A stretch of DNA of 64,000 bases from SAR202 cluster bacterium (GTDB lineage: Bacteria > Chloroflexota > Dehalococcoidia > Lucifugimonadales > UBA6927), in NCBI GenBank assembly GCA_022447855.1, contig JAKUTX010000008.1, positions 3,987 through 67,986 of the forward strand. The letters are read 5' to 3'. Below the pieces are notes generated by a model. That model was given only the letters and a program-made list of their open reading frames with translations. It was not told the origin of the DNA and searched no databases. Position 1 is the stretch's first letter; the number at the start of each line of letters is the position of its first letter. The translations under genes were made by a program, and so were the position numbers. Shown one piece after another: positions 4,633-53,940 of the stretch.

Positions 4633-5826
4633 TTATATTTTTAATGCTTCGAGTGCCGGCATTTGTCTTTCGGATAAAAAGTCTAAGGAAGCCCCTCCTC
4701 CGGTAGAAACATGGGAAAACTCTTCTAATAATTGCATTTTTTCAACTATATCAGCTGTAGATCCACCACCAACAATCGTGGAAATAGACTGGTTTAGAGA
4801 AGAAATTGCTTCTGCAATAGAAATTGTCCCATTACTGAATCTTTCATCCTCATATACACCCATTGGACCATTCCAAAAAATCGTATTAGCTCTTCTAAGC
4901 CTCATAGAGAAGTTTTTTACAGTCTTCGGACCAATATCCATTACCCTACCCTCTTTAGGTATGGATTTAATTGAGACAATTTTTACATTTTGTTCCTTCT
5001 CAGGGATTTCTACTTTAACATCACTAGGTAAAATTAATTCGCATTTTTTTGCATCTAGAGTTTTTAAAAACTCTTGCAATAGATCCAAACTATCTGCATC
5101 TATAATTGACTGCCCTACTTCATATCCTTTTGCTTTCAAAAAAGTTGCTGCCATACCTCCTCCAATCATCAAATAATCCGCTTTCTTAGAAATGCTTTCT
5201 ATTACTTGAATCTTATCAGCAACTTTTGCTCCTCCCATTACAGCTACGAATGGATTTTTCGGTGAAGACATCAACTTCTGCAACACTTCTATTTCCTGCA
5301 TCATTAAAAATCCTGGCATAGATGGTAAATAATTTGTTACTCCCACCGTCGAAGCATGGGAACGATGTGCTACACCAAAAGCATCATTAACAAACAAATC
5401 AGCTAACGAAGCTAAAAAAGAGGAAAATTCATCTGAATTTTCCTCTTCCCCAGGATGGAATCTTAAATTGGGTAGCATTAAAATTTCACGAGATTTTAAC
5501 TCCTGAACACACTGGGTCACATGCTCAAAGTCAAAATGCTCTAATTTCTTAACAGATATTCCTAACAAATCAGAAAATCTATCTACAATAGGTTTTAAAT
5601 CAAAATCTGTATCATACTTTCCTTTTGGACGTCCAAAATGTGAACACACAATAATTGAACAATCATTATCAAGCAAATAATTTATTGTAGGAATACTAGA
5701 GAGTATCTTTAAATCACTTAACACTTTAGTAGGGCCCATAGAATACGGGACATTAAAATCCACTCGTATCAAAACTTTCAAGTTTTTAATATTAAAATCA
5801 ATGAGTCTATTTTTTGGATTCAACAT
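4633..5826 (-). CDS. pgk: phosphoglycerate kinase
   Basis: 397 aa. RVDFNVP, SHFGRPKG and STGGGASL motifs. Confidence 0.95.
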   Translation of the reverse strand: MLNPKNRLIDFNIKNLKVLIRVDFNVPYSMGPTKVLSDLKILSSIPTINYLLDNDCSIIVCSHFGRPKGKYDTDFDLKPIVDRFSDLLGISVKKLEHFDFEHVTQCVQELKSREILMLPNLRFHPGEEENSDEFSSFLASLADLFVNDAFGVAHRSHASTVGVTNYLPSMPGFLMMQEIEVLQKLMSSPKNPFVAVMGGAKVADKIQVIESISKKADYLMIGGGMAATFLKAKGYEVGQSIIDADSLDLLQEFLKTLDAKKCELILPSDVKVEIPEKEQNVKIVSIKSIPKEGRVMDIGPKTVKNFSMRLRRANTIFWNGPMGVYEDERFSNGTISIAEAISSLNQSISTIVGGGSTADIVEKMQLLEEFSHVSTGGGASLDFLSERQMPALEALKI

Positions 5827-16318: not shown

Positions 16319-16918
16319 TTACCCAGTAATTGTACCCTTTGTACTTGGAATCTCTCCAGATCTACGTGGATCAATATCCAGTGCAAACCTCATTGCCCTT
16401 GCCAACGCCTTAAATATTGCTTCGGATTTATGATGGTTATTAACACCTGAGATCAATCGTACATGCAAATTAAATGCACCTTCTCTAGCCATAGATTCTA
16501 GAAGATGTTCAATTAAATCACCGCTCAAACCACCTAAATCAACATGGCCAATTTCAGTATTTAACACCGAATATCCTCTACCTCCAAAATCAACCACTAC
16601 CAAAGCTAAAGCTTCATCAAGAGGTACATATGAGTGTGCCATACGATTAATCCCTTTTGCATCACCTACAGATTGCCTAAGAGCCCTTCCAAGAGTTATT
16701 CCTACATCTTCTACTAAATGATGATATCCCAAATCTATATCACCAGATGCCTCAACTTTAACATCCATTAATCCATGTCTAGATAGCTGAGCAATCATAT
16801 GATCCAAAAATGCATTACTAGTATTTATCTTATATTGGCCTGTTCCGTCTAAATTTATTTCTACGGAAACATTAGTTTCATCTGTTTTCCGTTCAATTTT
16901 TGCTTTTCTACTAGTCAT
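16319..16918 (-). CDS. hisB: imidazoleglycerol-phosphate dehydratase
   Basis: 199 aa. RKTDETNVSVEINLDG, DHMIAQLSRHG and HHLVED motifs. Monofunctional, with no N-terminal phosphatase domain. Confidence 0.95.
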   Translation of the reverse strand: MTSRKAKIERKTDETNVSVEINLDGTGQYKINTSNAFLDHMIAQLSRHGLMDVKVEASGDIDLGYHHLVEDVGITLGRALRQSVGDAKGINRMAHSYVPLDEALALVVVDFGGRGYSVLNTEIGHVDLGGLSGDLIEHLLESMAREGAFNLHVRLISGVNNHHKSEAIFKALARAMRFALDIDPRRSGEIPSTKGTITG

Positions 16919-16940
16919 TTTTCAACACTCCATAATTAGA

Positions 16941-16950
16941 TTAACACATT
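16941..16950. repeat. left copy of the 10-bp direct repeat TTAACACATT flanking the his-operon insert
   Basis: An exact copy recurs at 17958-17967. Together they bracket the composition-shifted, ORF-poor segment. Confidence 0.6.
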
Positions 16951-17957
16951 GAATATCCGAAACTCCATACAATATCAGGGTCCCTCATTCCATATCATGC
17001 CCTATCACCACCATTTCGAGTACCTTCATCCTTAGAAGATTTGCGTCGCTGTAAACAGCCTCGCGCGGAGTTAGGTACATCTTGAGGTACATTCTGTGGT
17101 AAAAATCTAATTTTCGGTTAAATTGTGGTCAGGTTTTCTAGCTTCCAGTTGGCTGGGTTTGGGTGGTTTGTAAGTATTCATTGTATTACTGGTGGAGAGG
17201 GTATGTCTTAGTGATTGTGGTTTGTTGTAGTGGATACGCGTGACAGTTCAGAAATTATAAAAAAGGACGGTGCAACTAGTGGTTAGCCTGATGAGGGCTA
17301 AAAGATGACGGTCTACCACAGGACAAGAAACCTACTCTTGGGATAACCACAGATTCAGTTCCTAAAAGGCAGGCCGATAGCCACGTCACAACGTCCCATA
17401 TAGAAGTATATCATCCATAAAGCCATATACAAAAGGGACGGTGTAACAGTGGTTATGCGTGTCACAACGTCCCAAAGAGGACGCATCACAACGTCCTTGT
17501 ACAAGATAGCATATTTATAAAAGGGGCGTGTATAATCCGACCATTATGAGAAAATTTCTATTTATTGTGGGTGTGCCTTTCATAGGTTTTATTTTGTGGT
17601 GTGTTGGCTTAGCTCTCATTATGGCGCACATTGTTCAGAAGAATCCGAACCTCTTTGTACTAGCATTGGTATATACAGGTTTAGCGATTGCAGGGACTGT
17701 ATTCTTTACTAGAAAGATTCTTAAAAAAGCCGGTTACTCCTGAGTAGTGTTACTGCTCCGTGAGAGACTGAGAATGTGGACGGAAAACGTTCTGAAGTAG
17801 GGAATAATTTCCTGATTGATAACCGTGATAGTTACGCGAGCACTACCCTACTGGACGTCCTCTTGCAAACCGCTGTACTATCGCTTACATTACGGATATA
17901 GCGTGAGACTTTCATGCTGTTTATAAGCCACGGTCTCCGAGTGTTCTCGATTTCTTC
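16951..17957. mobile_element. candidate non-autonomous insertion (about 1 kb) between hisC and hisB
   Basis: Flanked by the 10-bp direct repeat. Removing it leaves a 38-nt hisC-hisB spacer that keeps the GGAG before hisB. G+C is higher than its surroundings: by hand count, 59/120 at 17281-17400 versus 19/60 at 16861-16920. Many GGACG/CGTCC hairpins. No transposase. Confidence 0.35.
17546..17743 (+). CDS. small two-TM membrane protein encoded inside the insert
   Basis: 65 aa from the ATG at 17546: MRKFLFIVGVPFIGFILWCVGLALIMAHIV...LFVLALVYTGLAIAGTVFF, two hydrophobic helices. TATAAT at 17531-17536 lies just upstream. Opposite strand to the his genes. Confidence 0.35.
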   Translation: MRKFLFIVGVPFIGFILWCVGLALIMAHIVQKNPNLFVLALVYTGLAIAGTVFFTRKILKKAGYS

Positions 17958-17967
17958 TTAACACATT
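17958..17967. repeat. right copy of the 10-bp direct repeat TTAACACATT
   Basis: Identical to 16941-16950. Lies 6 nt from the hisC stop codon. Confidence 0.6.
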
Positions 17968-17973
17968 AGAAAA

Positions 17974-19053
17974 TCAGACCAAACGTTTTAACACACTAAT
18001 CATCCGATCAGTTTGTGCAGGCGTACCAATTGCCGTCCGGAAACAGTTTCTTAATGATTCATTATTAAACGTACGCACAAAAATACCTTCGCTTTCCAAG
18101 CCACTTACAACAAAATCTTTTTTGTATTCTTTTACTTCACACAATATATAATTCCCACTTGAAGGGACAGGTTCCAAACCATCAATATCAACTAATAAGC
18201 TAAACAACCGATCTCTTTCATCTACTATACTTCGAACATTCTTTAGCAAAAACGCAGAATCATCAATAGAGGCAATCAATGCGTCTTCGGCAGTTACACT
18301 TAAATTGTATGGTGACTTTATATCCATTAAATGGTTGACCAAAATTGGGCTCATAATTCCATATCCCACTCTTAATCCTGCAAGCCCGGCCCATTTACTC
18401 ATAGTTCTAAGTATCACCAAATTATCAAACTCATCTATTAAATCCGCAAAGGTAAAATTGCAGAATTCATAATAGGCTTCATCCAAAACTACAAGAACAC
18501 CAGTATCAAGTAATGACCGTATTTCAAATTCCGAAGCCATATTTCCTGTAGGATTGTTTGGAGAAGCAACAAATATTATCTTTGTACGATCATTGATTGT
18601 TTTAAGAGCATCTTCAATATCAATTCCAAAACTGCTATCTCGCCTAGACAACTGAACTTCAGCTTGGTAAATCCTCGCACAAAATGCATACATCCCAAAT
18701 GTTGGTTCAAAATCCAAAATATTGTCTCCTGGTTCCACAAATAATCTGAACAACAAATCAATCAATTCATCACTTCCCGCTCCTGCGACCAAACAATCTT
18801 GGGGAAATCCAGTATATTCACTTAATTTATTACGAACTTTTCTTTGTAAAGGATCCGGGTAAACATGAACGGCAGAATTCGACACTACTTCAGAAACTTT
18901 CCCCGAAGGGCCATAAGGATTCTCATTACCATTTAATTTAATGATTTGATCAATTGGTATACCTGCTTTCTCCGCAAGCATTTCTGGAGGATCTACAGGA
19001 TCATATGAAGTGACATTACGCAAATGAGGTTTAATTAAATCTTCTATACTCAA
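17974..19053 (-). CDS. hisC: histidinol-phosphate aminotransferase
   Basis: 359 aa. LNGNENPYGPS, SPNNPTG and RTMSKWAGLAGLRVGY (PLP lysine) motifs. Confidence 0.9.
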   Translation of the reverse strand: MSIEDLIKPHLRNVTSYDPVDPPEMLAEKAGIPIDQIIKLNGNENPYGPSGKVSEVVSNSAVHVYPDPLQRKVRNKLSEYTGFPQDCLVAGAGSDELIDLLFRLFVEPGDNILDFEPTFGMYAFCARIYQAEVQLSRRDSSFGIDIEDALKTINDRTKIIFVASPNNPTGNMASEFEIRSLLDTGVLVVLDEAYYEFCNFTFADLIDEFDNLVILRTMSKWAGLAGLRVGYGIMSPILVNHLMDIKSPYNLSVTAEDALIASIDDSAFLLKNVRSIVDERDRLFSLLVDIDGLEPVPSSGNYILCEVKEYKKDFVVSGLESEGIFVRTFNNESLRNCFRTAIGTPAQTDRMISVLKRLV

Positions 19054-29111: not shown

Positions 29112-29184
29112 CGCGCCAGAAGGGATTCGAACCCCCAACCCTCAGTTCCGAAGACTGATGCTCTATCCGTTGAGCTACTGGCGC
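29112..29184 (-). tRNA. tRNA-Arg (anticodon UCG)
   Basis: Hand-folded cloverleaf. Acceptor GCGCCAG/CTGGCGC, D arm GCTC-AACGGATA-GAGC, anticodon stem TCAGT/ACTGA with loop CTTCGGA, T loop TTCGAAT. CCA is not encoded. Confidence 0.85.
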
Positions 29185-29202
29185 AAAAAATCATACATAT
29201 GA

Positions 29203-29280
29203 TGGGGTGAGCGAAGGGACTCGAACCCTCGATCTTCAGGGCCACAACCTGACGCCTTAACCAACTTGGCCACGCTCACC
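29203..29280 (-). tRNA. tRNA-His (anticodon GUG) with encoded G-1 and CCA
   Basis: Hand-folded. G(-1)+GTGAGCG/CGCTCAC+C73, anticodon stem TCAGG/CCTGA with loop TTGTGGC, T arm GAGGG-TTCGAGT-CCCTT, 3' CCA present. Confidence 0.9.
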
Positions 29281-44756: not shown

Positions 44757-44788
44757 AAACAGAGTTGGCGCATGCACCAACTCTGTTT
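44756..44788. terminator. bidirectional stem-loop between convergent glxK and glnK
   Basis: AAAACAGAGTTGG-cgcatgca-CCAACTCTGTTT, a perfect arm of 12 bp or more with A/T runs on both sides. Confidence 0.6.
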
Positions 44789-53874: not shown

Positions 53875-53896
53875 ATTCCCATAATTTTATAGTCGT

Positions 53897-53940
53897 ACAA
53901 AACACAACTCACTTTTTCAAGTGAGTTGTGTTTTGTTTAA
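53897..53940 (+). terminator. rho-independent terminator
   Basis: ACAAAACACAACTCAC-tttttcaa-GTGAGTTGTGTTTTGT, a perfect 16-bp stem followed by a T-rich tail, 22 nt after the stop. Confidence 0.8.

Follow-up and report, generated by a model that had tools for sequence, protein, structure and literature searches.

Intrinsic terminators are recognised by a G+C-rich stem with an immediate U-run and by a compact hairpin, with a loop of ~3-10 nt and a U-tract of ~7-9 nt, whereas type I toxin-antitoxin systems such as hok/Sok and tisB/IstR-1 pair a short hydrophobic protein, usually of <60 aa, with one transmembrane helix and toxic on over-expression, with a neighbouring, divergent or antisense small RNA that has a promoter of its own and base-pairs with the toxin mRNA. 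In reused ('putative mobile') promoters, a homologous upstream region stands ahead of different genes (PMC3575422). These systems are among the closest known counterparts of a hairpin array found in the window, that is, the whole stretch of 64,000 nt from a SAR202 cluster bacterium (contig JAKUTX010000008.1) analysed here. The array lies in a 1,007-bp insertion in the histidine operon, and the best explanation is that it forms the conserved, strand-specific core of a small, promoter-carrying putative gene cassette between hisC and hisB. The hairpins are probably terminator-like or antisense RNA hairpins.

The insertion is delimited by two copies of a 10-mer:

16951-17957: lineage-specific insertion of 1,007 bp, between hisC (17974-19053, minus strand) and hisB (16319-16918, minus strand)
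16941-16950: direct-repeat copy TTAACACATT on the hisB side of the insert
17958-17967: direct-repeat copy TTAACACATT, the same 10-mer, on the hisC side of the insert

Read in operon orientation the flanking repeat is AATGTGTTAA, 10 nt long or possibly 13, depending on the junction alignment. A single copy (…TTTTTCAATGTGTTAACC…) occupies the empty sites of the three closest lineages found (L001, L039 and L040), in which HisB is 87-90% identical to that of the window, the insert is absent, and hisC and hisB are separated by a spacer of only 38 bp; in more distant Dehalococcoidia the spacers are short too. An earlier reading of this region from its letters alone (the original prediction) had spoken of an insert, and the 38-bp spacer of the relatives bears that label out; the flanking repeats, the empty sites of relatives and the connection with a promoter-like box and a small membrane ORF were beyond the reach of that reading. 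The insert sits at the same position in 21 of 21 contigs with an identical HisB or small open reading frame (ORF), as well as in the variant L026, which is 92% identical; it is real and fixed in the window lineage. At 1,055 bp, the hisC-hisB spacer is the largest gap between long ORFs in the window, the next measuring 368 bp and the median 36 bp. In a window that is ~91% coding by a long-ORF estimate, a fixed, non-coding-rich insertion of 1 kb in the middle of the histidine operon is conspicuous.

A second copy of the array was obtained by scanning a metagenome collection with a hairpin-arm pattern written to exclude the window's own copies. One contig (L044) was returned, and its proteins were used to reach the longer contigs L051 to L061. 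In this second locus an element of ~930 bp is placed between the convergent genes rpiB and SDR (short-chain dehydrogenase), and it shares with the window the following:

17199-17551, minus strand: conserved core of 353 nt, aligning with L052 4795-5164 at 83% identity
17199-17255: upstream block GGGTATGTCTTAGTGATTGTGG…GTAGTGGATACGCGTGACA, conserved in L052

The core runs in the order 60-nt block, TATAAAAG, hairpins B, A and C, and GGGC(G/A)TGTATAATCCGACCATTATGAGA. Alignment between the loci fails everywhere else, in the left-hand 200-250 nt, in the tail and in the body of the small ORF. Within the window lineage the upstream block is 100% identical to that of L026, against an average of 92%. 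The second cassette is flanked by a perfect 18-bp direct repeat, AAGGCTAATGTTCCATTA (L052 4575-4592 and 5507-5524), which holds the stop codons of both neighbours, rpiB and SDR. No further copy of the core was found beyond the two loci by blastn, nhmmer or a covariance model in the window and 60 loci, and the search for dispersed copies covered the 64-kb window and ~160 kb of related loci, ~220 kb in total. As side observations on the borders, the 18-bp repeat is a candidate target duplication, and the second cassette has, close to either end, a copy of a 23-nt direct repeat, AT(A/C)AGTGGTCAGATAAGTGGTCA (L052 4719-4741 and 5440-5462). The motif GTGGTCAG occurs once in the window, at ~17125-17132, and is tandemly doubled in L026 through a 12-bp insertion.

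The hairpins, as predicted for the minus strand, are arranged as follows:

17478-17497, minus strand: hairpin C, AGGACG, 8-nt loop, CGUCCU
17435-17473, minus strand: hairpin A, GGGACGUUGUGAC, 13-nt loop, GUUACACCGUCCC; -17.2 kcal/mol on the minus strand, -15.0 on the plus strand
17431-17434, minus strand: U-run UUUU directly 3' of hairpin A, 3-5 U across copies
17265-17397, minus strand: hairpin B, closing stem GGGACGUUGUGAC (17397 to 17385) with GUUGCACCGUCC (17276 to 17265)
17283-17301, minus strand: small hairpin within B, UUAGCC-CUCAUCA-GGCUAA
17252-17264, minus strand: U-rich run UUUUUUAUAAUUU directly 3' of hairpin B; its equivalent in L052 is UUUUAUAGAAAUU

Several of these helices had been named in the original prediction and were recovered: the long-range helix, in which 17265-17276 pairs with 17385-17396, is the closing stem of hairpin B, the local hairpin (17435-17447 with 17461-17473) is hairpin A, the 6-bp hairpin (17478-17483 with 17492-17497) is hairpin C, and the nested TTAGCC/GGCTAA hairpin is present at 17283-17301. 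The same is true of the thrice-repeated motif, TCACAACGTCC, which lies at 17386, 17462 and 17486 and has no further copy in the 64 kb, and of the paralogous blocks, two 17-nt sequences (AAAAAGGACGGTGCAAC and AAAAGGGACGGTGTAAC) that proved to be related. The recurrence of GGACG/CGTCC, also pointed out at that time, amounts to nine copies in the 1,055-bp spacer versus 0.5 expected from the rest of the window (~18-fold; Poisson P ~4e-9), six of them within 17265-17496; these copies are not independent, because they derive from duplicated units (an 11-mer present three times and a 17-mer present twice). A 7-bp helix (17796-17802 with 17846-17852) and the palindrome GGACGTCC (17853-17860) likewise exist as described, but they lie in the unconserved tail, where population variants strike both without pattern, and have been left out of the element.

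When a 261-nt stretch was folded and compared with dinucleotide shuffles, z-scores of -3.7 (plus strand) and -4.4 (minus strand) were obtained, none of 200 shuffles being as stable. The interior of hairpin B spans ~108 nt, is predicted to form a three-way junction and includes 38 consecutive bases identical between copies. The small hairpin at 17283-17301 is invariant in all copies and therefore uninformative for or against pairing. A minus-strand ORF of 37 aa inside B was considered as a hidden gene and discarded, its frame being broken by indels in L052.

Within the array itself a few details deserve mention. The loop of hairpin A at 17449-17456 (AUAACCAC, minus strand) is perfectly complementary to GUGGUUAU in B (17343-17350), and B's own UAACCAC at 17279-17285 competes for this segment. 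A loop-to-interior contact between A and B, or an alternative fold, is possible, and all copies are invariant there. A perfect 10-bp palindrome, CTTGTACAAG, sits at 17496-17505 between hairpin C and a promoter-like box; the second locus has it too, and L026/L034 differ from it by two changes. In L055 (200-260) the end of an lhgO-like gene comes within 10 nt of B's midpoint, on a low-coverage contig that may be chimeric.

The comparison of the two loci indicates which strand carries the structure. Differences fall on 10 of 126 paired columns and on 22 of 113 unpaired ones (Fisher P = 0.013), and seven of the nine changed stem pairs remain standard pairs. The break listed in C, together with one kept pair there, is an alignment artefact of an inserted base pair, and in the break in B a sub-helix CGG/CCG is re-formed as UACG/CGUA after indels. 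Hairpin B has undergone five pairing-preserving changes (exchange of G·U and G-C three times, C-G to U·G once, U·G to U-A once), and in hairpin A of L052/L051 one U-A pair has become U·G. Hairpin C reads AGGAACG/CGUUCCU in the second locus, with one base inserted in each arm and an A-U pair gained, and in L026 its basal A-U pair is G·U on the minus strand. Altogether, at least one copy has G·U on the minus strand at 10-11 positions of the helices, equivalent to A·C on the plus strand, whereas there is no real case of A·C on the minus strand, the sole apparent one being the inserted-pair artefact in C. Consensus energies are -47.6 (B) and -24.0 (C+A) kcal/mol on the minus strand and -38.4 and -19.8 kcal/mol on the plus strand. 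Stem conservation, kept pairing and G·U bias favour folding of the minus strand, the sense of the his operon, and the structural case, drawn from two diverged lineages, is good but not conclusive. A multi-helix RNA had already been proposed. This part of the proposal stands to the extent that the helices of B, A and C are kept, with pairing-preserving stem changes, in an independent copy of 83% identity; it had been drawn on the plus strand, however, while the wobble pattern indicates the minus strand, and the tail helices are not conserved.

The alternative offered at the same time was an array of binding sites for a dimeric protein. Beyond the hairpins, the plus strand carries the following:

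17516-17536, plus strand: promoter-like box TATAAAAGGGGCGTGTATAAT, with a TATAAT box, ending 9 nt before the ATG at 17546
17546-17743, plus strand: small orphan ORF, encoding 65 aa and two hydrophobic segments

The dimeric-protein proposal fared poorly: the inverted arms are 8, 13 and ~108 nt apart, one natural variant merges two units into a single hairpin, and the symmetric one-base insertion in hairpin C adds a pair yet would alter a half-site, while an asymmetry between G·U and A·C is meaningless for double-stranded binding sites. The variant concerned, L059, has B and A fused to one hairpin (at 1300-1400) by a 185-nt deletion between 22-nt repeats. In a wider form, the array would consist of duplex sites, operators or decoys, at which GGGRCG(G)TG beside the promoter-like box is recognised by a regulator or an RNA polymerase factor. 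Six copies of a 12-13-bp motif, three in each orientation, do lie within 270 bp upstream of and overlapping the box, and the motif belongs to a box that precedes four different genes. We nevertheless regard operator sites as very unlikely, given that the arm spacing also varies between copies, that half-sites are altered by the insertion in C, that the strand asymmetry of the mismatches has no meaning for a duplex, and that the cassette contains no regulator gene.

The hairpins most likely fold in RNA as terminator-type stem-loops. We infer that RNA rather than single-stranded DNA would be the folding molecule and that the outcome would be termination or stabilisation of a transcript. In minus-strand RNA the order would be hairpin C, hairpin A with UUUU, and hairpin B with UUUUUUAUAAUUU; A and B would be tandem stem-loops of terminator type, forming or stabilising 3' ends, and TCACAACGTCC would be the shared arm of three duplicated units. 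The transcription that they would act upon could enter from the upstream host gene (hisC, or SDR in the second locus) or start near the 5' end of the ORF, and it would cross the small ORF in antisense. This specific proposal, in which RNA hairpins of terminator type stand in tandem on the strand opposite the small ORF, is our leading candidate, advanced tentatively and with somewhat less than even confidence.

The proposal of tandem terminators draws on the 3' ends of the stems. On the minus strand A ends in …CCGUCCC-UUUU and B in …CCGUCC-UUUUUUAUAAUUU, at least four U follow directly on the G+C-rich stem base in four of four copies from the two loci, and the L026/L034 variants have three U after A. 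A G+C-rich stem with an immediate U-run is thus present and kept in the second locus. In the promoter-proximal, hairpin-less paralogue in L052 the U-run is lost. Of the window's 58 candidates with a hairpin and a T-run, only three have a better energy than hairpin A, which matches obvious intrinsic terminators. The host gene next upstream (hisC; SDR) runs in the direction of the folding strand at both loci, and minus-strand RNA is therefore expected from read-through alone. Elsewhere in the window a textbook bidirectional intrinsic terminator occurs at ~53,875-53,935 (AACACAACTCACTT…AAGTGAGTTGTG, with T-runs on both strands), and other clean terminators lie near 44,760 and 38,540.

A number of points weigh against tandem terminators. 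A consensus terminator scan of 16800-18100 called none, because the loops are large and the interior of B is long: the A loop measures 13-14 nt, the B interior is ~108 nt and structured, and the U-runs comprise 3-6 residues, so that neither loop nor U-tract is that of a compact terminator hairpin. The U-runs coincide with the complement of the promoter-like TATAAAAG and may instead be conserved for a promoter-motif reason. Efficient terminators would sever hisB from the rest of the operon, yet an abundant population carries the insert in fixed form, and a promoter scan found no convincing replacement promoter for hisB. The interior of B is conserved beyond the needs of a terminator, and the plus strand folds well too. 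The covariation check on homologous copies that the original prediction had recommended returned wobble-compatible changes and one base-pair insertion between two diverged lineages, and no pair in which both sides had been substituted (RNAalifold). Finally, template-switch correction in quasi-palindromes could keep the arms complementary without any function.

The last point leads to an explanation in which the array is a functionless tandem and inverted duplication of a promoter segment (TATAAAAGGGRCGGTG…), shared by descent or by recombination, the arms being kept by template-switch repair. The array does resemble a tandem plus inverted duplication inside a reused promoter region, because the promoter-like box is paralogous to the 5' arm of A and to that of B. 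Direct repeats of 13-22 nt bound the units, whose number varies through unequal crossover (one fused hairpin in L059), one template switch could account for the base pair inserted in C, and within the window population the density of single-nucleotide polymorphisms in the hairpins (2.6%) is about the same as in the flanks. Template switching leaves unexplained, on the other hand, why all ~10 wobble positions are biased to one strand, why stems have changed less than loops (P = 0.013), and why a 353-nt core survives at 83% identity amid cassette flanks that cannot be aligned. A functionless origin is, on balance, rather unlikely.

A different function can be envisaged for the minus strand, namely a short regulatory RNA transcribed divergently from the small ORF or in antisense to it, with C as the 5' hairpin, a CCUCUUU linker and A as the terminator, exerting a control of type I toxin-antitoxin kind on the gene of a small membrane protein. 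The short, strongly hydrophobic orphan ORFs, with two segments each, differ by locus while the core is conserved, and the conservation of the core ends just inside the ORF, taking in the ATG and the first codons. On the minus strand, immediately 5' of hairpin C, a conserved TATG(C/A)TATCTTGTACAAGG contains a -10-like hexamer, and a layout of two hairpins and a U-tail is typical of small RNAs. Yet a scan gave no minus-strand promoter consensus match at the right place, the complementarity to the ORF mRNA (duplex energy) is no better than for shuffled sequence in either locus, and an mRNA that starts leaderless from the TATAAT box would overlap in cis over no more than a few bases. The proteins themselves also argue against such control: the window ORF is close to neutral, with population variants nonsynonymous:synonymous at 9:4, relatives of the second ORF exist without the hairpins, and zinc-ribbon tails, which set them apart from known type I toxins, are found on some members of the family. 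A regulatory RNA of this kind thus appears somewhat improbable, at about the level accorded to the functionless duplication.

The cargo of the two cassettes is indeed distinct. The second-locus ORF encodes 69 aa, again with two hydrophobic segments, and is a different protein from the 65-aa window ORF. Homologues of the latter were confined to its own population among 5.8e9 clustered proteins and 1.8e9 representatives, the small ORFs matched no PHROG or Pfam family, and the six-frame segments of the insert matched no Pfam family. Relatives of the 69-aa ORF, 89% identical, occur in a third locus type (L045-L050), where the hairpins are absent and the same TATAAT-to-ATG segment is present. L045 encodes a zinc-ribbon protein of 69 aa (4766-4975) whose N-terminal helix is similar to helix two of the window ORF; at the nucleotide level, window 17677-17728, which encodes the second helix and KILKK, is 81% identical over 52 nt to the part of L045 encoding the N-terminus of that 69-aa protein. 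Along these lines, cluster member P0132 (98 aa) joins the two-helix protein to a zinc ribbon at the C-terminus, similar to the one in the neighbouring 69-aa protein, and the small proteins look modular.

The promoter-like region has a wider distribution than the hairpins. In these genomes GGGCRTGTATAAT is found ahead of four different genes. The 60-nt block of L045, followed by TATAAAAGGGGCGTGTATAAT (2190-2256) and without hairpins, stands ahead of a GNAT acetyltransferase gene, and the box alone precedes a 74-aa gene. The sequence 3' of the L045 GNAT gene (2800-2950) matches the tail of the small-ORF cassette in L052/L051; this common tail consists of the stop codon followed by GACATCC…GGATGTCATAGCAT…. 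The combination suggests shared ends and exchangeable cargo among the cassettes. A Sigma-70 promoter scan found fewer sites than in shuffles and none that was conserved.

The hairpins might be strand-specific single-stranded DNA signals of a mobile or replicating element (transfer origin, single-strand origin or recombination site), perhaps tied to cassette insertion. Such sites typically have strand-specific hairpins that tolerate G·T, the cassette lies between long direct repeats in two loci (10-13 and 18 bp), and no enzyme is encoded, so movement would be in trans. The hairpins are central rather than terminal, however, the termini of the two cassettes have neither common sequence nor inverted repeats, no relaxase, Rep, integrase or transposase lies nearby (the window was not screened for intI), and inheritance is stable at each locus. 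Phage and plasmid collections gave no match to the whole insert in distant blastn, and six pattern scans of viral contigs returned only chance matches (a coding repeat in L037, a coding region in L038, a GC-rich sequence in L062) or nothing. A role as single-stranded DNA signals is accordingly considered exceedingly unlikely. A common attachment site was also tried and rejected, as the direct repeats of the two loci share only CATTA/ACATTAG, in opposite orientation relative to the cassette.

The surroundings of the insert can be summarised briefly. Relatives of HisB place the organism in SAR202/Dehalococcoidia. The flanking minus-strand ORFs are hisD, hisC and hisB, and purC, a DUF3105 gene and purS converge from the plus strand. 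Two further parts of the insert are distinguished:

17744-17957: insert tail, containing the 7-bp helix and the GGACGTCC palindrome, without similarity to the second locus or other fetched sequence
17100-17250, minus strand: C-rich, G-poor stretch with repeated ACCAC motifs, 3' of hairpin B and 5' of hisB

The GC skew on the plus strand reaches +0.48 at 17100-17299, and the C-rich stretch is like a Rho-loading region in composition only. Directly upstream of hisD lies an ORF of 249 aa (20338-21087, minus strand); in the syntenic L039 a 249-aa gene with a Zn-dependent phospholipase C-like domain is found between hisG and hisD, an unusual passenger of a his operon. At gathering threshold, Rfam matches in the window are limited to two adjacent tRNA genes (29112-29279, minus strand).

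If the hairpins are terminators, the insertion would have split the operon and hisB would need new control; if they belong to a regulatory or mobility RNA, they would represent a new RNA family in a globally abundant, uncultured ocean lineage. The insertion illustrates how orphan small-protein genes that bring a promoter-like region can enter between essential genes and leave the neighbours undamaged, and the predicted RNA structure is compact, conserved, strand-specific and without an Rfam family. Taken further, one may picture an undescribed cassette family in the streamlined marine SAR202 genomes, inserted among closely packed genes with unusually long and variable target duplications of 10-18 bp that spare the neighbours, in which the three-way-junction RNA (B) together with A and C constitutes a new functional RNA class for membrane-protein control or mobility, and not plain terminators; we consider this quite unlikely.

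Among known structured RNAs, an Infernal search against Rfam, as advised in the original prediction, placed no family at gathering threshold inside the insert. With Rfam 15 the insert has no match at E < 0.01, and at E <= 10 the MDR-NUDIX motif (RF02918) alone appears, below threshold. It is the only model to touch the region, at the homologous place in both loci, and scores 24.2 bits in the window and 21.4 bits in L052 versus a gathering threshold of 54.9. The match covers hairpin C, the CCUCU linker, an inner hairpin GUUGUG/CAUAAC and ACCACU, whereas the second hairpin of the model lacks its outer stem here. The family also has a different gene context. A literature search for the MDR-NUDIX name found nothing. 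A hammerhead ribozyme can be dismissed, since CUGAUGAG is located in a hairpin loop and not in a junction, and no ribozyme model matches.

Integron cassettes with attC sites share with the present element the small size, the orphan ORF, the insertion between genes and an imperfect, strand-specific hairpin with an extrahelical or mismatched base. They differ from it in that here the cassette has its own promoter-like box, hairpins 5' of the ORF and flanking direct repeats of 10-18 bp. An attC site proper was excluded: the cores R'' RYYYAAC and R' GTTRRRY are absent, the arms reading GTGTAAC/GTCACAA on the plus and TTGTGAC/GTTACAC on the minus strand, and the boundary G|TT is not at the junctions, which read GTTAAGA and GTTAATC. 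Miniature inverted-repeat transposable elements (MITEs) and the REP/BIME elements are comparable in being non-autonomous, in the target-like duplication and in modular hairpin units of variable number. In contrast to these, there is one copy per locus, the duplication length varies (10-13 versus 18 bp), and terminal inverted repeats are absent from the window insert and from L052, the termini of the two cassettes being unrelated. It is unusual for insertion sequences to have direct repeats of 10-18 bp that leave both neighbouring genes intact.

With type I toxin-antitoxin systems the locus has in common a short hydrophobic orphan ORF and a better-conserved structured region on the opposite strand with terminator-like ends. 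It departs from them in the length of the ORFs (65-69 aa) and their two hydrophobic segments, in the near-neutral evolution of one ORF, and in relatives that carry zinc ribbons or lack the RNA module. Intrinsic terminators are matched by the G+C-rich stem base followed by a U-run on one strand only, by the arrangement of two in tandem and by the comparable energy of A. They are not matched by the large A loop, the long structured interior of B and the short U-runs, by the position of the array inside an operon upstream of hisB, or by its over-conserved sequence. Reused promoters (PMC3575422) differ in lacking an internal hairpin array of ~270 nt and in not being carried in a cassette bounded by long direct repeats. 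As in that class, however, the 60-nt block and TATAAAAGGGGCGTGTATAAT precede two small ORFs and a GNAT acetyltransferase gene, and part of the region precedes a fourth gene. With a homologous upstream region ahead of the window ORF, the L052 ORF and the L045 GNAT gene, the putative promoter region falls under the operational definition of a reused promoter.

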